Positions 22,475 to 31,077 of a DNA stretch of 32,000 nt are shown here, one piece after another. Location of the stretch: positions 2,910,001 through 2,942,000 of the forward strand of contig NZ_CP064923.1 of assembly GCF_018336915.1 (NCBI RefSeq), read 5' to 3'. This DNA is from Acaryochloris marina S15 (lineage in GTDB: Bacteria; Cyanobacteriota; Cyanobacteriia; Thermosynechococcales; Thermosynechococcaceae). Positions within the stretch are counted from its first letter, which is position 1; the number at the start of each line of letters is the position of its first letter. Both the position numbers and the translations under genes were made by a program. Below the pieces are notes generated by a model. The model did not search any database. It worked only from the letters and a program-made list of their open reading frames with translations, and was not told where the DNA came from.

Positions 22475-23254
22475 CTAAGCCGTGAATCCGCCCATTGGAT
22501 TAAAGTTATGTGCCGACTGACTGGCCGTGAGCGCCGCCTGGGAGAAGAGCTGAAAAGCCTTCCGAATCTCATTATGGGAATTGCCCGGCGTCAAGATCCA
22601 TTGTTCACGCACCCCCATCTCTCGAAACACCCGTTTAAAGTCCGTCTGTCCATCATCGATGCCCATTGCTGCAATAATATGGTCTTCCGTGCGCAGCATA
22701 TCCTCGACCATTATCTTGACCTCCCGGACAGAACGCCGAGAATGGGCATCCGCTCCATCCGTAATAATCAGAGATACCGTCCGCACCGGCACCCCATTAT
22801 CGATAAAAGCTTGGGCCTTCGCTAGAACCGTAGCCAGTAACACCAGAGTTTGGTCATAGAGCGGCGTTCCCAGATTCGGATCATAATTGTGTTGATCCAT
22901 CCGCATCGCTTGGTCAACAGAACAGTAGGGATAGAGCACCGCCCCATTGAGATAGCGGTTGTGAACAAGAATATGGTCTTTCTGTGGGGACATGGCCAAC
23001 GTATCCAGCACCGTATTATGTCCAGCCCGGACCACCGCCCCATGGCCGGCAAACCGAATCGAACCCGAATCATCCGGCATGATTGTCACCAGCACCACCT
23101 CACTAGCCATCACATCATCGACTGGCGTTCCCAGGCCAGCCTGGATCTGTGCCCCAATATCGACAATATTGAGGGCCTGCATCGATGCCTGTGAGAGTAC
23201 CCCATCCGCTTGGGCTGATTGGAATAGTGCATTTAGATTCGGAACTTGAGACAT
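22475..23254 (-). CDS. von Willebrand factor A (vWA) domain protein, TerY-like
   Basis: I prefer ATG 23254-23252, which is preceded by AAGGAGaatgtt. That gives a 259-aa product starting MSQVPNLNALF. The MIDAS elements are VVLVTIMPDDSGSI (DxSxS), GTPLYD (Thr) and SLIITDGADAHS (Asp). The 378-aa track version adds an R/W-rich extension that overlaps the upstream gene. Confidence 0.8.
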   Translation of the reverse strand: MSQVPNLNALFQSAQADGVLSQASMQALNIVDIGAQIQAGLGTPVDDVMASEVVLVTIMPDDSGSIRFAGHGAVVRAGHNTVLDTLAMSPQKDHILVHNRYLNGAVLYPYCSVDQAMRMDQHNYDPNLGTPLYDQTLVLLATVLAKAQAFIDNGVPVRTVSLIITDGADAHSRRSVREVKIMVEDMLRTEDHIIAAMGIDDGQTDFKRVFREMGVREQWILTPGNSHNEIRKAFQLFSQAALTASQSAHNFNPMGGFTA

Positions 23255-23360
23255 AACATTCTCCTTAAAAAGTGAGGTGTATAGAGAGGAAGTGATTGAC
23301 GCATTATTGAGAAAAGCCAGCAGACCCAGCAGACGCTGATCGAGCCATAGTTTAATCCGT

Positions 23361-24392
23361 CTAAGGATTGATGCCAGGCCAACCTGCGATCTCATCCGTA
23401 GAACGCACCAAATGCATGCCCGCTTGTTGAAACCGTAGAAATGCCTCATTGGCCTGCTCCGTAAAATCGACCACCCCTGGCACCACCACCGGCGAAGAAC
23501 AATCTTCCAGCAGGTAAATTTTCTTCGCCAAGTCCGGGTCATGGGCTTGAATTTCCGTGAGTAAGTCATCGATAGTCCAGGCGACACAGTGACTCTTGGC
23601 CTGCCCAGCAATAATCACCACATCAAAATCCAACAGCTTTTGGATAAACCGGATATTCTTTTGGGCAATCGGCCGTCCCTTCGGATCATCGAGAACCTCC
23701 GGTCGGAGCACCGAGTAATTTTCTGTCAGAGGATTGCCCCCCTTGATTTCAAAATTGGTCTGACTATGGCGAGCCAGATTATGGAAAAAGCAGGCCTCCT
23801 CCACCGCCGCCACCAGGGCATGGCCAATGCCTCCCAACATCGAGTGATAGGGCCAAATAGTCAGGGGATATTTCCCCTTCTGGGAAAGGCGTTGGACATA
23901 GTGGCGGGCAAAATTCTGCAGAGCCATATAATTGCCCAGACTATAGGCCATTGCCGGATTCACCTTCCAGGCCCCCTGTTCCACCTCTGCCAAAGAAATC
24001 ATCGTCAGGGGCGTGGGAGACTCGCCGCGATCATTCAGCCAAAAATCAGCATGGAAGATCTGCATCGCCGTATGAGTATCCATCGTCGGTGCAATTTCCG
24101 TAATCGTCCCCAAATTGCGGTAGATAAACTCACAAAGTCGGCGATTATCCTCCACTGCCCCCATCCCAGACGGTCCCCCCACAAACAGCTCAAAGTCGGG
24201 AATACAAAACGTATTTTGGACATCAATTGCCATCAGACAAATCCGCATTTTATCCTTCGCTGCTGGCTGCACCCCCTGTTGGCTTGCCCAGTCCCGGGCC
24301 TGTTGGACTCTGTCCTGGTAAGGGACCCGCCACACCTTCCCCACCCGTTGAGGGTCAAAGAAATTAGGAATGGGTAATTGCGTCAACATCAT
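23361..24392 (-). CDS. Isochorismatase-fold cysteine hydrolase, nicotinamidase (PncA)-like
   Basis: 343 aa. The catalytic triad context is [11 protein letters not shown] (Asp), [16 protein letters not shown] (Lys, compare PncA KG…DSYSAF) and [14 protein letters not shown] (Cys). A putative metal site is [13 protein letters not shown] (D-x-H…H). GGAG lies 10 nt upstream of the ATG, which is 11 nt after the kinase stop. Confidence 0.8.
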
Positions 24393-24403
24393 TTTAAAAT
24401 CTC

Positions 24404-26281
24404 CTACAACTGCAATAACTGAATGGTTTGGGACCCTACCGTATAGAGTCCCTGGGGAGCCGCCAATACCTGATAGCCCGTCTGCACAAACGGCTCCGTT
24501 TCCGGGAATTGTCGCTGCAGGATCAATCGCCCTTGATCTACCTGCACCCGAGCAATGCCCTCATCCGTCGCCACCAGCAGGGCATCTTCCACCGCCCAAT
24601 GGGGACAAATGGGCGATCTCCCTGCCGTCCATTCCCCCACATCGGCCTGAGCCACCACCTGACCCGTCGGTGCGATTACCCAACATTGCTGTTGAAGTAC
24701 CCCTTGGTCCTGGATCGTCACGAAGAGCCATCCCAAAGATTGACTAAACGTGCAGTTGGCCGCCACTATCGTCCCCGCTCCCATGGACAACGACAGCCGA
24801 TCATTTATCCCTGAGCGCTGGACATCGAAGACGAAAGCCCCGTTCAGCCGTCCGGCTCGATAAAAACCCAGTCCAAACCGAGGTCCCACCCAAAACTGGG
24901 TTTGTCCGGCCAATACCTCCCCCACCACTGAGTGGTCCCGCATTAACTGTCCTTGGCTCAACCAATAACAATGCCGATCATTCACCGCAACCTGGGGCCG
25001 ACCTTGATAGCAATCCACCGAGATCCGCTCCGTATCTGCCGATAATCTCACCACCTGACCCTGCTGTGCGATCCAAGTAGTTTGACCCTGTAGATACCAG
25101 TCGGACTCAGGACTGAGATCGCCCGTGAGCATCACCGCTCCGTCTTCCCGCTTAAACTGCCCCTCCTCCCAGACCAACCACTGCAGATGCCCTGCTGTCA
25201 ACGTAGCCGCCAAGATCACCCCATCCGTTTGTAAGACCGTCGTGACCTTAACCTGTCCCTGCTGAACGGGTGGAGCAACCCCTATAGATTGCACACAGCT
25301 GGGACAAGCAGATCGAGCATGTTCAACCCCACAGGACGGACAGGTTTGCCAGCGCAAATTTTCCAATAGCGATCGCGGAAATGCTCCCCGCCAATCCTGT
25401 TCAAACACCCGCTGAAAATGATCTAACAATGCTTCCGGTAAGCGATCGCACGGTAAAGCCGGCTTCGGATAGCGTACCTGGGGATGAAACACCGTTATCC
25501 GATGTAAGGGGCGAGCTGCCGCAGGCAATCTCTGAGCTGGATCAGACGGTCTATAAACACCACCATAAGGATTAACAAACAGCAGTGCCTGCATCAGCAT
25601 TACCGTAAAGGCGTACCAATCTGACTCCCAGGAATAGGGTCGACATAAAATAGGCTGTGTTCCCTGCGGATCACACAGTAGTGGATCGACAAAGCGGGCT
25701 GTAAACACCGAACAGGGAAATGAACCAAACTGGAATGAATCGGCATCAATCAGAAATGCCTGGGTGCCCTGCACTAAAATATTTAGGTCATTAAAATCTC
25801 CAATCACCACATCTGCACAATGCAGCTTGGCCACCGTCTCGTGCAGATCCAGAAATAGATTGACCACCACCTGTGTGTCTATCGTCTGCCGAACCTGGCG
25901 ATGGTCTCCGACCCGCCTGCGATGGTCCCCGACCCTCCTTCGGAGATCGCAATACCGTAACAGCACCTCCGCATTCGCCACCAGCGGCATCGTATAGCCT
26001 AAAATTCGCCGTCCGCCTTGATTCATCACCAACCCCTGTGGGGCAATCACCCGCTCAGGTAACGACTGGGGAAACTGCCGCAGCTTTTGCTGATGCAGCG
26101 CCAACCGCTCCCGTGCGCCCTGCTGAGCCTCAGCCATGCCCACAAAATCAGGATGACTGGGAGACTTAAATAGCTTCACCGCCGTGGTTCGATTGAGGCG
26201 ATACACATCCGCTTCTCCCCCCTTCCCAATCGCTTGCTTAGGGCGTAGGCGAACTCGTTTTTGATTGATATAAACGTCCAT
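24404..26281 (-). CDS. Atypical Ser/Thr protein-kinase-like protein with CxxC-x8-CxxC zinc ribbon and ~295-aa beta-rich C-terminal domain
   Basis: 625 aa. The glycine loop is [10 protein letters not shown] and the beta3 Lys is in AVKLFK. The catalytic loop is [12 protein letters not shown] (RIO/Bud32-like D…N) and the metal-binding element is LIDADSFQF. The Zn ribbon is [16 protein letters not shown] (~25293-25345). The C-terminus has repeated W/Q-rich strand-like segments ([62 protein letters not shown]). Confidence 0.8.
25898..25950 (-). repeat. In-frame 24-nt twin-hairpin insertion splitting a HIP1 site, followed by a 21-nt tandem partial duplication
   Basis: The minus-sense sequence is GCGAT-CTCCGAAGGAGGGTCGGGGACC-ATCGC-AGGCGGGTCGGAGACC-ATCGC. 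Deleting the first 24 nt regenerates GCGATCGC. The 21-nt units at 25898-25918 and 25919-25939 differ at 2 positions. Together they encode [15 protein letters not shown]. Confidence 0.85.
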
Positions 26282-26307
26282 AGAAATTTAGAAGTAGCAT
26301 GAGCTTC

Positions 26308-26435
26308 GTATCGCAATACCAATTGACGATACGATCTTATAAAATACAGTATTGCCCTAAAACCTCTTCACAGAAAAGAGATTGAGCTTTTTGCTAGCGC
26401 ACCTAAAATAAATCCGTATTGCAATACCGTATTGC
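26308..26435. promoter_or_regulatory. Cluster of GTATTGC/GCAATAC palindromic sites in the ARH-kinase spacer (candidate operator/internal promoter, or weak terminator)
   Basis: The sites are GTATCGCAATAC (26308-26319), AATACAGTATTGC (26343-26355), and the perfect palindrome GTATTGCAATAC (26416-26427) followed immediately by CGTATTGC (26428-26435). On the minus strand a TATAAG hexamer lies next to the middle site, about 60 nt upstream of the kinase ATG. Confidence 0.4.
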
Positions 26436-26436
26436 T

Positions 26437-27249
26437 TTAAACTTGTTTGATCTCAAAAGTCTGTATAAACGTCGTGGCCACCTGCTGTAAGTCTGCATCG
26501 AGCCGTTTCCAAGTCTCCTGGGCAATCCTTTCTGGTACCCCACCATAAAACCCTTGAGCAATACCACCGGCAATACAGGCTTGGGTATCACTATCACCTC
26601 CAAGCGATACGGCATTGCGAATCGCATCTTCAAAATCTGTAGATTCTAGAAATGCCGTGATCGCCTGGGGTACCGACCCCTGACAGGAGCTATCAAACTG
26701 ATACTGGGGTCGAATCTCTTCCAGGCTCAAACTCAAGTCATAGCCAAAGGTTGCTTCGATATAGGCTTTAATCTCCGCCTTAGACTGCCCCTGTCGCCCT
26801 AGGTAAATGGCTGCCGCAGTTGCCTGTGCTCCCTTAATCCCTTCTGGGTGATCATGGGTGACGGCTGCACTTCGCTTCGCTTCTCGCAATACCGTTTCTA
26901 AATCATCAAAGGCAAATCCAACAGCACTGACCCGCATGGCTGAACCATTCCCCCAACTGTGATACGGTTCCAAGCTGTCTGATGCCCCCCATTCTCGAAA
27001 GGTTCTGCCATAGCCAGCTTTGGGATAGCGCCGATAATAGTCCTTGATGCTATGGACATACTCCTTCTGATGGAGAATGGCATCCGCAACTGCGATGGCC
27101 GAAGGCCGGTCGGGGACCATCGTAAGTACCGTATCGTCTGTAAATTTCGATTTCTTACTAAATAATTCAAACTCTTTCCGTTTCATTCGTCGCCAATGGG
27201 GCTCAAAAACTGACCCAATCATGTCACCTGCGATCGCACCTAGCATCAC
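26437..27249 (-). CDS. ADP-ribosylglycohydrolase (ARH/DraG family)
   Basis: 270 aa with these motifs: MLGAIAGDMIGSVFE, FTDDTVLT, YHSWGNGSAMRVSAVGFAF, THDHPEGIKGAQATAAAIYL, SCQGSVPQAITAFLESTDFEDAIRNAVSLGGDSDTQACIAGGIA. The start codon lies 26 nt inside the 3' end of the PP2C gene, which suggests translational coupling. Confidence 0.9.
   Translation of the reverse strand: MMLGAIAGDMIGSVFEPHWRRMKRKEFELFSKKSKFTDDTVLTMVPDRPSAIAVADAILHQKEYVHSIKDYYRRYPKAGYGRTFREWGASDSLEPYHSWGNGSAMRVSAVGFAFDDLETVLREAKRSAAVTHDHPEGIKGAQATAAAIYLGRQGQSKAEIKAYIEATFGYDLSLSLEEIRPQYQFDSSCQGSVPQAITAFLESTDFEDAIRNAVSLGGDSDTQACIAGGIAQGFYGGVPERIAQETWKRLDADLQQVATTFIQTFEIKQV
27092..27122 (+). repeat. Second copy of the 24-nt twin-hairpin insertion in a HIP1-like site, opposite orientation relative to the gene
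   Basis: The plus strand reads GCGAT-GGCCGAAGGCCGGTCGGGGACC-ATCGT. It is 27/31 identical to the kinase copy. Removing 24 nt leaves GCGATCGT. It encodes an extra MVPDRPSA directly after the FTDDTVLT motif of the ARH. Confidence 0.7.
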
Positions 27250-28074
27250 TGCCTCCTTCTTCCGTCTCTTTCCGTCTAATACTGATTAACGTAGTGTCGT
27301 CCGGTAATAAACCTGGAATCTTCCGCACCTGCTGAGCATCCCAGTCCGGCTGTATCACCTCTCTATTGATTTGAGCGAGCCGTCGTCGCACCTGATCAGG
27401 ATTCTGGAAATAGCGATCGCAACACCAGAACTGATTCAGTGGTCCCACAGGTTCCAACTTTCCAGGGAGATACTCTTCCGCTACATTCATTAAGTCCCCT
27501 ACCCCATCGCTTCCAATCAGCACAGACTGCACCTGCTCAGTAGGTTGTTGAGCATAAATCTGGAGTTGAAATGGATCGGGGCCTTTCTCGGCTTCCCATA
27601 GCAAGCTGTATGCCAAATAGGGCGGAGCATTATTGGCAAATGGACCAATCTGATGAAGCTGCTCATTGATGGCAAATACCCCATCCCCTAGACCAAAAAT
27701 CCAGGTTGTTTCTGGGGTTACTAAACACCCAGTCAGGGTGAATAAGAAGTAATCCAACAGCCCTTGTTCATCCGCTCCTAACGGCTCCTTTAAAGTCTGC
27801 ATCTTCTCTAATAGGCGCTTTCTCAATGTCTGCCAAAACAGCTCGTCTTCTGGTCGTTCCTCTGCCACTAATTGAGCAAGAGTGTGCACCGTTAACTGAG
27901 CCCCTAGCTGCGCTCCGACTTCACTTTTAGGTCGACTCCCGCACCCATCACATACCACCGCAATGGTTGCTTGACCTGGTGTAAGAATGGCCCAAGCATC
28001 CTGATTATTCTGACTGACTCGTCGATGGTTCTGGCCCAAAATAGACCCAGCCGCGACTTCAAAATGCTGTTGCA
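27224..28074 (-). CDS. PP2C-family (PPM) Ser/Thr protein phosphatase
   Basis: The metal-binding motifs are AVVCDGCGS, IFGLGDGVFAI, VLIGSDGVGDL and LPDDTTLISI. I prefer ATG 28074-28072 (MQQHFEVAAGSILGQNHRRVSQNNQDAW), a typical PP2C N-terminus. The TTG at 28144 and the ATG at 28120 fall inside the predicted promoter/operator. Confidence 0.8.
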
Positions 28075-28082
28075 TTGCTCTA

Positions 28083-28138
28083 TAGTGTAAAAGTGACACT
28101 AACTCAACTAAATCTATCATAGTGTCACTTTTACACGA
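28083..28138. promoter_or_regulatory. Two NrtR-type operator-like boxes (TAGTGT-N7-ACACTA; GT-N7-AC core) forming a 17-nt perfect inverted repeat
   Basis: Box 1 is TAGTGTAAAAGTGACACTA (28083-28101). Box 2 is TAGTGTCACTTTTACACGA (28120-28138). The arms GTGTAAAAGTGACACTA and TAGTGTCACTTTTACAC are exact reverse complements separated by 18 nt. Confidence 0.55.
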
Positions 28139-28144
28139 TGTCAA
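28116..28144 (-). promoter_or_regulatory. Near-consensus sigma70-type promoter for the PP2C-led operon
   Basis: The minus strand reads TTGACA (28144-28139), a 17-nt spacer, then TATGAT (28121-28116). Box 2 fills the spacer exactly. Box 1 would lie in the first ~30 nt of the transcript. Confidence 0.5.
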
Positions 28145-28159
28145 GATTGACCCTATCCT

Positions 28160-28852
28160 ATGCCCTATACCTATGACTATCCGCGCCCTGGTCTTACCGT
28201 TGACTGTGTGGTGTTTGGCTTAGACGAACAGATTGATCTCAAAATCCTACTAATTCAGCGCCAGATTCCTCCCTTCCAGCATCAGTGGGCACTGCCTGGC
28301 GGCTTTGTGCAGATGGATGAATCTTTAGAAGAAGCGGCTCGCCGGGAACTACAGGAAGAAACGGGTGTTCAAGGTATCTTTCTAGAGCAGCTCTATACCT
28401 TTGGTGATTTGGGTCGAGATCCGCGCGATCGCATCATCTCCGTTGCCTACTACGCTTTAATCAACCTAATTGAATATCCCTTACAGGCCGCTACTGATGC
28501 TGAAGATGCAGCTTGGTATTCCCTTGGAAATTTACCATCCCTAGCCTTCGATCATGCTCAAATCTTGAAACAGGCTATCCACCGCTTGCAGAGCAAAGTT
28601 CGTTATGAACCGATTGGTTTTGAATTACTGCCGCAAAAATTTACGCTCACCCAAATCCAGCATCTCTATGAAACGGTTTTGGGTCATCCTTTAGATAAAC
28701 GTAACTTCCGTAAGAAATTGCTAAAAATGGATCTCTTAATCTCTCTGGATGAGCGACAAATTGGAGTTGCCCATCGTGCTGCTAGGCTCTATCAGTTCGA
28801 CCAAAGCAAATATGAGCTATTGAAGCAACAAGGATTTAACTTTGAAGTTTGA
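28160..28852 (+). CDS. nrtR: Nudix-related transcriptional regulator NrtR (Nudix hydrolase domain with C-terminal winged helix)
   Basis: 230 aa with an intact Nudix box, [24 protein letters not shown] (G-x5-E-x7-REUxEExGU). The C-terminal wHTH region is [33 protein letters not shown]…RAARLYQF, as in NrtR proteins. It is transcribed divergently from the PP2C operon. Confidence 0.85.
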
Positions 28853-29052: not shown

Positions 29053-29802
29053 CTATTTCATTCTAAAAACATCCATCAGTATGTCTAGTGATTGTTCACA
29101 TCGTCGCTTTGCCTGAGCCATATTGGTGAATCCATATTCTCGATAAAGATTGAGTGATAGATTACGCGCTTGTACGAACAGGCCAATAAGGGGTGTGGTC
29201 CGAATCCTTGAAGCATCTTCACCTTGGGTGACATCGCGAACATAATGGACCTTGTTTTCTACTCCCCAATACCCCCGAATTCTTTGTGCCAAAGGTTCTA
29301 CCTCCTCCAGGAGTGACGTGATGTAATAGCGAGTCTCTTGGGTATCGACAATCATGTCGTTATAGATTTCAGAGCGTTGTGATTCAACCCGAATGAGTGT
29401 TTTGAGACCTGGCCATTGTCGAATATTACTCAGGTCACGGCAGATACTAACGGTTCGCTTTTCAATGCGACCATGCCCTTTTCCCAGGGTTTCAACCGTT
29501 GATTCTGGCTTAAAATGTGCTTTCACATCAGTCAGTAATCCTTTCTGGTTGCCTTTGAGCGCCCCGAGATACTCATTGCCACTGTCAACAATGAGCTGTG
29601 CTGTTTTTTTGGGTGTTGATGGCATCAAAGGCAAAGACCACTCCTTTGAGAGCAAGCTGCTCAATCATTTCAGGCAAGGCCTTGATTTCATTGGTCTTCT
29701 GGTCAACTTCATAAGGGGGCAAGATTAAACCTCTCTCTACCACATAGCCTGTGACCATCATGATTGCGGGATGGGGCTGACAATAAGGATTGTCTGTTTC
29801 AG
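29053..29802 (-). pseudogene. ISAs1-family transposase, frameshifted and 5'-interrupted by an IS4-family insertion
   Basis: Two overlapping ORFs join across a T7 run (29604-29610): …EVDQKTNEIKALPEMIEQLALKGVVFAFDAINTQK | TAQLIVDSGNEYLGALKGNQKGLL…GHGRIEKR…WPGLKTLIRVESQR…TRYYITSL…AQRIRGYWGVENKVHYVRDVTQGEDASRIR. These are classic ISAs1/H-repeat motifs. Upstream coding sequence is cut at 29803 by the IS4 inverted repeat. Confidence 0.75.
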
Positions 29803-31077
29803 CTGAGGGGGCGACATGAAGGCTACAACCCAGCACAGACAAGCTCCATCGCTCTCATCCCCCGTTGATACTCAGGTAGCTTATTGGGAGAGAGTTTCAT
29901 TAGCTCATCCACCAATCGAGCCAGAACTCCATCCCCCGTTATGGCCCACATATACGCAGATAGTCCAACTCGGAATGCACTATGCCGCTTGTTCAGTGAA
30001 GTGGTGGATTCGGGTCTAGTAATATAGCGCTGTAGTCCTTTTTGCTTGAGATTTTGCCCTTGCAGTGCCGCACTGGTATAGGCAATGGCAATCACAATAA
30101 CGATAGCCACCAACCGTTCTTGCATGGCTTGAGAGCCTTCGAGACAATAGCCTCCTTTCTTGAAGTCCCGAAACATTTCTTCGATAGAGAAGCGTTTTTG
30201 GTAGCTGACGATAGCACTATTGAGGTCACAGAAGTTGGTGAGAATAAACCATGCTTCATCAGGTGCAAACCCCTGATACCGTCGTTTCCACTTGGCTGCC
30301 ACATTGAAAGTTCCAAAGCCTTTAGCCTGAGTGACGCGCACATCATTGAGAAATAGCTTTTGACCTGGGACAAGGCCAAACTGTTGGAGTTGTTGAGTAA
30401 ACTGCTGAGCCAGAGCCACTTCGGTATTGCGCTTGAGTCGCAGACAAAAGTAGACCTCTTGTTGGCCTAACCACTGCCCCAGCTTGACGGAACAAAACTC
30501 TCGGTCACCGAGGATGACCAGACGATAGGCTGATAAATGGCTGATAACTTTGCTTAAAACAGCGGTTTGCTCGTCATAGTTGCTGCTGCCCTTTTTGCAG
30601 AGGGCTTCACACCATACGGGAATAGCGCGATGTTGCCAGACCACGCTGACCACCAATAGATTAATCACTCCCCAACTCGTACGGTCGATGACGACATAAA
30701 GCTGGGAGCCTTGAGGATACTGCTGGCTCAGCCACAGCTTAACCAGCGGTAGCCCCAAAGCGTTTCAAGCTCAAGGGTCGGTAAGGATAAGAACCGTTGG
30801 ATTTTTTTCGGCGACTGTCAAAAAGAATCGGCAGTGGCAGCCCTTCTGCTAGCGTCTCGATTTTGACGCAGCGAAGTGTTTGTAATAGATGAACGAGGAT
30901 CTCTAGGAGAAGATACTGGGCAGGAGACAGTTGACGGCGTAAATGGGGTTGGTATAGTGGCAATATCATTGTCAATAAGGTGAGCTGGAGATACATCATT
31001 TGCAGCCCATCTTTTTTCTTATCTATCGGGTTATTGCACAAATAGCAAGGGGTTTACGACGCATGTCGCCCCTTCAG
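29803..31077 (-). mobile_element. IS4-family insertion sequence (~1.27 kb) with 16-bp terminal inverted repeats, inserted into the ISAs1 transposase gene
   Basis: IRL is CTGAGGGGGCGACATG (29803-29818). The reverse complement of IRR (31062-31077) is CTGAAGGGGCGACATG, a 15/16 match. The transposase ORF ends 5 nt inside IRL. Confidence 0.7.
29823..30999 (-). pseudogene. IS4-family DDE transposase, two apparent frameshifts
   Basis: DDE context: LYVVIDRTSW, LVILGDREF and YQKRFSIEEMFRDFKKGG (Y-2-R-3-E-6-K signature). The N-terminal part (MMYLQLTL…FDSRRKK) is in another frame. The frame changes at a T7/A7 run (30802-30808) and near the C4/G4 run (30753-30756). These could also be sequencing errors. 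Confidence 0.7.

Follow-up and report, generated by a model that had tools for sequence, protein, structure and literature searches.

Probable SDR5-type twin-hairpin mini-elements within HIP1 octamers of Acaryochloris marina S15

Introduction

SDR5 is a cyanobacterial repeat module that is inserted precisely within the octamer HIP1 (PMC4390886), and it was reported from Nostocaceae only, SDR-like repeats being absent elsewhere (PMC5861425). Few of the mobile DNAs that have been proposed are as small as elements of the SDR5 type, whose target HIP1 is without an established function. Here we describe 24-nucleotide (nt) units with two hairpins that split HIP1 octamers in two neighboring genes of Acaryochloris marina S15. 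The analyzed DNA, called the window, comprises 32,000 nt of contig NZ_CP064923.1 (positions 2,910,001 to 2,942,000), and all positions below refer to it. The units are very probably HIP1-targeted mini-elements of the SDR5 type, and the array in one of the two genes, which encodes a kinase-like protein, very probably consists of two different units.

The SDR families described by Elhai and coworkers in 2008 reportedly measure 21-27 nt, and an RNA intermediate is said to have been favored for them. SDR4 and SDR6 are said to fold like SDR5 although their sequences have little in common with it, and not to be exclusive to HIP1. The Rickettsia palindromic elements (RPEs) of this obligate intracellular alphaproteobacterium are about 100-150 bp long. 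Nezha and Correia are miniature inverted-repeat transposable elements (MITEs), which are non-autonomous, have at least 100 bp and carry terminal inverted repeats matching a parent insertion sequence (IS). The repetitive extragenic palindromes REP/REPIN (RAYT, HUH/Y1) and the elements derived from IS200/IS605 are short hairpin repeats moved in trans (PMC3116915, PMC3733652).

The units described here consist of a variable but paired hairpin with a 4-bp stem (hairpin 1), the hairpin GGTC-NNN-GACC (hairpin 2) and AT, and lie inside HIP1. Like SDR5, they are very short, dispersed and present in many copies, and their arrangement (GCGAT, 22 nt plus AT, CGC) equals an insertion between HIP1 nucleotides 3 and 4, given the AT repeat. 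They also share with SDR5 recent mobility, here seen as presence or absence among related strains. SDR5 is described as a two-hairpin structure with compensatory changes; here covariation was found in hairpin 1, beside an invariant stem of hairpin 2 and ambiguous minimum-free-energy folds. In contrast to the Nostocaceae reported for SDR5, the present family occurs in Acaryochloris and several other non-heterocystous lineages, and the Acaryochloris copies have the hairpin-1 stems GGCC, CTCC and CGC and other loops. What is new relative to the SDR5 description is this range, an allelic series among near-identical strains and the formation of arrays via regenerated HIP1, which we did not find described for SDR5.

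The other systems are functional analogies only. As the initial annotation of the window had remarked, RPEs are likewise palindromic selfish repeats that lie in frame in coding genes, where the added peptides are tolerated; the likeness does not extend to size, target or sequence, since the window units have 24 bp, are cyanobacterial, use HIP1 and are unrelated in sequence. REPs and REPINs are also short non-coding hairpin repeats whose structure is kept by compensation, and insertion 3' of a short target without duplication, as in IS200/IS605, would fit CGAT^(24 nt ending in CCAT)^CG. However, REPs are extragenic with GTAG/CGTC heads, while 67-78% of the present copies are in long open frames and no GTAG/CGTC head was found in the family consensus. 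No transposase gene linked to the units was identified, RAYT linkage not having been looked at. MITEs are similarly dispersed and sometimes tolerated in or near genes, and the 2-bp TA duplication of Correia resembles the AT repeat, but the window unit has 24 bp with two internal hairpins, and its only terminal inverted repeat is the split HIP1.

The spread of the family over HIP1-rich cyanobacteria makes both the mechanism of SDR5 and the function of HIP1 more tractable, with culturable Acaryochloris strains of less than 1% divergence differing by gains and losses of single units, and with some units regenerating their own target.

Three units in two genes of the window

Three units were identified in the window (Table 1), namely A and B' at one site in the gene for the kinase-like protein (kinase site) and a third one in the adjacent ADP-ribosylglycohydrolase (ARH) gene (ARH site). 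The kinase site reads GCGAT-CTCCGAAGGAG-GGTCGGGGACC-AT-CGCAGGCG-GGTCGGAGACC-AT-CGC on the minus strand (25950-25898). Deleting the 24 nt directly downstream of GCGAT gives back GCGATCGC, the HIP1 octamer, and the first three bases of B' (CGC) together with the upstream GCGAT form a complete HIP1 when A is absent. The kinase-like protein gains LRRRVGDH and RRRVGDH in frame, and the ARH protein gains MVPDRPSA in frame from a unit whose orientation relative to the gene is opposite to that of the kinase-site copy. Both host open reading frames (ORFs) stay open despite the inserts.

Seven HIP1 octamers were found in the window against 0.15 expected, and CGAT-N22-ATCG occurred four times against 0.29 expected. 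Strict GC-rich twin hairpins arise about once per 588 kb of shuffled cyanobacterial DNA; two were found in the window, both between HIP1 halves. Further approximate matches to the GGTCGGGGACC core, elsewhere in the window, had neither a first hairpin nor HIP1 flanks and were due to chance. The sequences and coordinates that the initial annotation had given for both sites were exact, as was its reading of the inserts as frame-preserving. Its assignment of a kinase host gene holds as far as a sub-threshold match to a protein kinase or Bud32-like fold (Pkinase, E=0.007), with the insert just past the hinge (about position 90 of 263 in the Pkinase profile) and not in the N-lobe proper.

Table 1. 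Positions of the units, the split HIP1 targets and the host genes in the window
Feature	Position	Strand	Remark
Left half of split HIP1, kinase site	25946..25950	(-)	GCGAT; codons ..TGC GAT of the kinase-like gene
Unit A	25922..25945	(-)	24 nt, CTCCGAAGGAGGGTCGGGGACCAT; encodes LRRRVGDH
Unit A, hairpin 1	25945-25935	(-)	CTCC-GAA-GGAG
Unit A, hairpin 2	25934-25924	(-)	GGTC-GGG-GACC
Unit A, AT	25923-25922	(-)	
Unit B'	25901..25921	(-)	21 nt, CGCAGGCGGGTCGGAGACCAT; encodes RRRVGDH
Unit B', hairpin-1 remnant	25921-25914	(-)	CGCAG^GCG
Unit B', hairpin 2	25913-25903	(-)	GGTC-GGA-GACC
Unit B', AT	25902-25901	(-)	
Right remainder of original HIP1, kinase site	25898..25900	(-)	CGC
Left half of split HIP1, ARH site	27092..27096	(+)	GCGAT
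ARH-site unit	27097..27120	(+)	24 nt, GGCCGAAGGCCGGTCGGGGACCAT (= GGCCGAAGGCC-GGTCGGGGACC-AT); opposite to host gene
ARH-site unit, hairpin 1	27097-27107	(+)	GGCC-GAA-GGCC
ARH-site unit, hairpin 2	27108-27118	(+)	GGTC-GGG-GACC
ARH-site unit, AT	27119-27120	(+)	
Right remainder of ARH target	27121..27123	(+)	CGT; gene-sense flank ACGAT..ATCGC, 7/8 HIP1
Host gene 1	24404..26281	(-)	625-aa protein-kinase-fold protein (Bud32/RIO-like, sub-threshold); conserved cyanobacteria-wide
Host gene 2	26437..27249	(-)	ADP-ribosylglycohydrolase (ARH), PF03747, E=2.4e-34

Empty sites and allelic series in Acaryochloris

Insertion polymorphism with intact empty HIP1 sites was observed at both sites. The kinase site of locus L002 is empty and reads TGCGATCGCAAA, with a perfect HIP1. 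The segment was absent from all of the 10 distant orthologues (53-59% identity), and the Acaryochloris orthologues were polymorphic exactly at this segment, with forms of 618, 625 and 626 residues among the kinase-like proteins that cluster at 90% identity. The ARH site of the window has exactly 24 extra nt compared with five orthologues; the 'Moss Beach' strain carries the unit as well, and L140 lacks it and has a perfect GCGATCGC in its place. The presence of A, B and the ARH unit varied among strains whose kinase genes are 0.5-3.7% apart. These are precise 24-bp gains or losses at the HIP1 center, with very recent polymorphism.

The alleles of the kinase site formed a series. L140, which is 0.5% divergent from the window, has unit B alone (GCGAT-CGCAGACGGCG-GGTCGGAGACC-AT-CGC), and an identical B occurs alone in L005, which is 15% divergent. 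L139 (3.7% divergent) has A alone (GCGAT-CTCCGAAGGAG-GGTCGGGGACC-AT-CGC), the 'Moss Beach' chromosome (L141; 1.0% divergent) has A followed by full-length B, and the window has A followed by B minus 3 nt. Full-length B (CGCAGACGGCGGGTCGGAGACCAT) was thus found alone in L140 and L005 and after A in L141, and apart from the 3-nt deletion the 21-nt unit B' of the window equals it. A and B differ at five positions, four of them in hairpin 1, while B is identical in strains 15% apart; therefore, B' was not copied from A. In the alleles with B only, the left junction is an intact GCGATCGC, since B starts with CGC, and A sits precisely at this rebuilt octamer. L006 is built in the same way, with a different unit (CGCCGCAGGCG-GGTCAAGGACC-AT) ahead of a variant of B (TGCAGAAGGCA-GGTCGGAGACC-AT), and a single HIP1 of Nostoc PCC 9305 likewise hosts two different units.

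The hairpin-2 loop GGG is common to both young units of the window (A and the ARH unit) and was not present in the 75 other copies among the matches listed of the genome scan described below. As both young units carry a loop unseen in the other copies, this points to one active source in the window lineage.

The initial annotation had proposed a 24-nt insertion exactly into HIP1 that was then partly duplicated. The empty octamers in L002 and L140 agree with the first part; the second does not stand, because the units supposed to be copies were found separately, B in L140 and L005 and A in L139. The ARH copy, also named there, is a true second copy in opposite orientation. It had also proposed to look for empty sites in related kinases and for a varying number of units between isolates, and both were found (L002; A, B and A+B alleles); the RRRVGDH segment was absent from the distant orthologues.

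As a side observation, the 'empty' allele of Acaryochloris sp. CCMEE 5410 (L003:3330-3350, L004) is GCGATCTGCGATTT, which is not HIP1. The six bases after GCGAT in this strain (CTGCGA) are similar to the start of unit A (CTCCGA) and may be the footprint of an imprecise loss.

Distribution of the family and specificity for HIP1

One genome per species was scanned with the pattern CGAT-N11-GGTC-RRR-GACC-AT-YG, which gave at least 123 matches. At least 75 of them were cyanobacterial copies (71 in named cyanobacteria and four in unlabelled bins). Among the matches listed, all four pairs of hairpin 1 were present in 65 of the 75 cyanobacterial copies vs one of the 48 matches elsewhere, and full GCGAT..ATCGC flanks in 51 of the 75 vs two of the 48. 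The 48 non-cyanobacterial matches are chance hits. These copies, together with those on 12 Acaryochloris plasmids, answer the point raised in the initial annotation that the proposal would fall if no other copies existed, and its placement of the element among the very small dispersed repeats of cyanobacteria agrees with the properties of SDR5 as described (PMC4390886, PMC5861425).

The type GACC-TCC-GGTC GGTC-GGA-GACC was found in Nostoc, Anabaena, Calothrix and their relatives. Leptolyngbya PCC 6406 had at least 11 copies, and further hosts were Spirulina CCNP1310, Thermosynechococcaceae bins, Egbenema, Petrachloros, Lyngbya confervoides, Kovacikia and Acaryochloris (three strains). The stems of hairpin 1 fell into lineage-specific subfamilies. 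Nostoc members read GCGAT-GACCTCCGGTC-GGTCGGAGACC-ATCGC and have hairpin 2, AT and target in common with the window copies. On plasmids, copies of the Acaryochloris type were detected in Acaryochloris only (12 records, three strains), while an exact 32-mer of the Nostoc type was on six Nostocaceae plasmids, and the matching Nostoc plasmids numbered 11 overall. A scan of viral contigs gave six matches, all due to chance.

Plasmid pMB02 of 'Moss Beach' (NZ_CP071719.1; L133-L138) contains five identical copies, GTGAT-GGCCGAAGGCC-GGTCGGAGACC-AT-CGC, at 105, 117816, 121811, 149637 and 175650. All of them are at the same place beside istB in a repeated IS21-like element, and this mini-element has been multiplied five-fold passively with its IS21-like carrier.

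The family is dispersed, diversified by lineage and confined to HIP1-like sites. A strict search for twin hairpins (two adjacent GC-rich 4-bp hairpins; a version permitting G-U pairs was flooded by chance matches) found 66 in 588 kb of cyanobacterial DNA vs about one in shuffles. No twin hairpin of the GGTC type lay outside HIP1-like flanks in these 588 kb, and no GGTC-type unit did so in a complete 277-kb Acaryochloris plasmid, where the copy number was low and the three independent sites were all 7/8 HIP1 contexts, one of them inside the IS21-like element with its five-fold multiplication. A metagenome scan was also made with the core only, the pattern containing no flanks, and its matches were split by the GC and HIP1 content of the contigs. 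On low-GC contigs 35 of 39 copies had HIP1-like flanks, and the four exceptions were on contigs without HIP1; on high-GC contigs the flanks were unrelated in 76 of 81 matches, as expected for chance. In a biased sample of Nostocaceae DNA, the spacing from GCGAT to ATCGC was enriched only at N=22 (19 cases vs 0-2 at other lengths), and the GGTC-type family was the only recurrent insert that splits HIP1.

Variant junctions were found on metagenome contigs (L147/L153/L164/L174, which are one locus, and L185; L198 and L247). The left flank GCGTT replaces GCGAT in two independent loci with the right AT kept, and two copies are arranged as GC, 22 nt, GATC(G/A)C without the AT repeat, apparently by insertion after the second base of HIP1.

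Twin hairpins of a second type, CGCC-NNN-GGCG plus GGGC-NNN-GCCC plus AT, were also tied to HIP1 halves (L068:2520-2573 in Nostoc sp. PCC 9305 and L104:3962-3985 in Calothrix sp. NIES-2100). In L068 this type forms a tandem with a GGTC-type unit within one HIP1. This type may be another SDR family, for which SDR4 and SDR6 come into question; hairpin 2 of the window units is of the GGTC type.

Structure and coding context

Hairpin 1 has evolved by compensatory changes, in support of the folding that was initially proposed for it. Among 62 distinct copies all four pairs changed on both sides, the second pair being G-C or A-U in a ratio of 29:27, and 94% of the cells were paired. The observed score was reached by none of 500 shuffles and by no slid control. 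In the predicted DNA fold of unit A, pairing of the HIP1 halves encloses the two hairpins, with competing alternatives. Single-sequence folding energies were rejected as evidence since they were not discriminating.

At the kinase site, orthologous units show changes of whole base pairs by which the encoded protein is altered. These are C-G vs T-A in the B units of L005 and L006, and T-A vs G-C in the units that lie upstream in the window and in L006. This comparison of sequences argues for a constraint that would act at the nucleic-acid level.

About 67-78% of the family members were in long open frames, compared with 79-87% for random positions. They occurred in both orientations within ORFs (25 sense, 17 antisense) and in several phases. 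The unit is tolerated within genes in either orientation because its 24 nt equal eight codons, are rich in G+C and contain few stops. The same peptides recurred in unrelated proteins; the one known from the kinase-like protein has the form D-xxxxV(G/E)DH-R, and the one known from ARH has the form A-MVxDRPxx-IA. The family thereby accounts for odd 8-residue inserts, ..V(G/E)DH.. and MVxDRPxx, in otherwise conserved cyanobacterial proteins, which is of use for annotation.

Two further ideas were dropped. The lack of stops in six frames was considered as an adaptation and rejected, as 55% of shuffles of the same composition were also free of stops; the absence of stops is largely due to base composition. 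Selection on a duplicated peptide, considered on the basis of three synonymous differences between the two window units, became moot once these proved to be different elements.

Origin of the units and possible mechanism

The units of the kinase site could also be explained as a single 24-nt insert partly duplicated in place by tandem slippage. The two window units are indeed adjacent with a period of 21 nt, are identical at 18 of 21 positions and encode the same heptapeptide, and the lengths of the allelic proteins are 618, 625 and 626 aa. But a copy of A should resemble A more than a unit from a strain 15% divergent, whereas the second unit is B, which is identical in L140, L005 and, with its full 24 nt, in 'Moss Beach', and the two units, differing mostly in hairpin 1, are each found alone. 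Slippage is therefore highly improbable. That the peptide is an ancestral basic loop of the protein, deleted in other lineages and flanked by HIP1 through coincidence, agrees with its in-frame position in intact host ORFs. It deserves practically no credence, as the segment is missing from all distant orthologues, the same 24-nt unit occurs in an unrelated gene in opposite orientation, it recurs at dozens of unrelated places across cyanobacteria, both in ORFs and between genes, and the empty sites are exact HIP1 octamers. A functional cis-element, such as a protein-binding site or an RNA hairpin regulator kept by selection, would account for the compensated structure of hairpin 1 and for the conserved sequence of hairpin 2 among distant cyanobacteria. 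We regard this as very unlikely, since the units lie in both orientations and several frames of unrelated ORFs, come and go between strains 0.5% apart, merely ride in an IS21-like element in one case and show no relation of their position to gene starts or ends.

Another explanation does without dedicated transposition. Break repair or gene conversion would transfer the insert from a filled HIP1 site to an empty one, with the 5-nt halves GCGAT and ATCGC as microhomology after transformation or a double-strand break, and the hairpins would be incidental or would promote breaks. The same short homologies bound every copy, HIP1 has been linked to recombination and transformation efficiency (bioRxiv 2024.09.10.611283), the allele pattern of the near-identical strains requires recombination or precise loss anyway, and the copy number is low (about three independent sites per 277 kb). 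It leaves unexplained why the pairing of hairpin 1 is kept by compensatory changes despite sequence drift, and why only the 22-nt design recurs between HIP1 halves (19 cases at N=22 vs 0-2), and homologies of 5 nt are very short for templated repair. Thus, we consider it unlikely. Together with the independent occurrence of A and B, the evidence argues for HIP1-targeted mini-elements of the SDR5 type.

Several points weigh against this interpretation. To place the alleles with A alone, with B alone and with both on the tree of the kinase gene, one precise loss or allelic recombination is the minimum. The entry of A into a rebuilt HIP1 is the simplest reading and not an observed event. The stem of hairpin 2 is invariant and was partly fixed by the search patterns, so its pairing is without support from covariation; single window copies fold unexceptionally (z -0.7 to -1.6), with alternative folds competing. 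One preprint gives the length of SDR5 as 21 nt and not 24, and the match to the published SDR5 consensus was inferred from described properties, not from sequence. SDR5 is set beside the family by description only, GACCTCCGGTCGGTCGGAGACC being the family sequence for comparison with the SDR5 consensus; a full-text literature search for the core sequence returned unrelated primer matches only, and the consensus is not printed in the citing papers. Finally, no mobilizing enzyme, intermediate or excision product was identified, a parent IS not having been searched for.

Under the interpretation as mini-elements, each unit is a non-coding 24-bp module made of an 11-nt paired hairpin with a free stem sequence, the 11-nt GGTC-NNN-GACC hairpin and a terminal AT, inserted at the HIP1 center (GCGAT^CGC). 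At the kinase site the older unit B would have been inserted first, recreating a complete GCGATCGC at its left junction by its initial CGC. The younger unit A would now lie in this recreated HIP1, and B would subsequently have lost 3 nt in the window strain. The third unit occupies a HIP1 in the neighboring ARH gene.

Mobilization may occur in trans by an enzyme encoded by the host or by an IS, which may recognize the folded single strand with hairpin 2 and AT as the constant determinant and may cut the HIP1 center. PvuI cuts CGAT^CG with a 2-nt stagger, and a PvuI-like cut would duplicate AT; in an HUH/IS200-IS605-like insertion 3' of CGAT, the AT would be the element's own end. The AT repeat is equally compatible with a staggered cut and with an IS200/IS605-like insertion. 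The constant right AT beside a left TT in two independent loci of the core-only scan is a weak hint in favor of the latter, and any one enzymatic mechanism is at best tentative.

A broader proposal, possible but doubtful, is that HIP1 is the attachment site of phylum-wide 24-bp hairpin elements moved by an enzyme that cuts the HIP1 center. If so, the near-identical Acaryochloris strains would be a natural experiment toward a HIP1-directed activity and a first mechanistic handle on a 30-year-old question, namely what acts on HIP1. Units starting with CGC would then rebuild the target, so that arrays would grow and in-frame peptide repeats would accumulate within proteins. Strain polymorphisms that led to an enzyme acting on HIP1 would raise the interest of the family.

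Host genes and gene neighborhood

The kinase-like protein of the window matches an Acaryochloris marina protein at 100% identity, and a sequence search of the PDB with it gave no informative relative. Across cyanobacteria its homologues at about 50% identity number more than 1900, but no curated family covers it. Both host genes belong to a cassette conserved at 22475-28852 of the window and at loci L001-L006 and L139-L141, which encodes an NrtR-type Nudix regulator (divergent), a PP2C phosphatase, ARH, the kinase-fold protein and, with no Pfam hits, two further conserved proteins (343 aa and about 259 aa). The ARH gene is absent from L001 and shortened to 213 aa in L140.

The PP2C ORF (27224-28144, minus strand) encodes 306 aa from a TTG start in the window and in L004; its length in other strains is 283-298 aa. 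The ORF overlaps the start of ARH, which itself contains a HIP1 (27230-27237), and the assignment of the start codon is uncertain.

Two adjacent or overlapping ORFs similar to IS4/DDE transposases (203 aa and 311 aa), with an ORF of 85 aa between them, lie beside the cassette at 29053-30758 on the minus strand and are probably a disrupted IS. Transposases also lie at this edge of the cassette in other Acaryochloris loci, but they are different ones.

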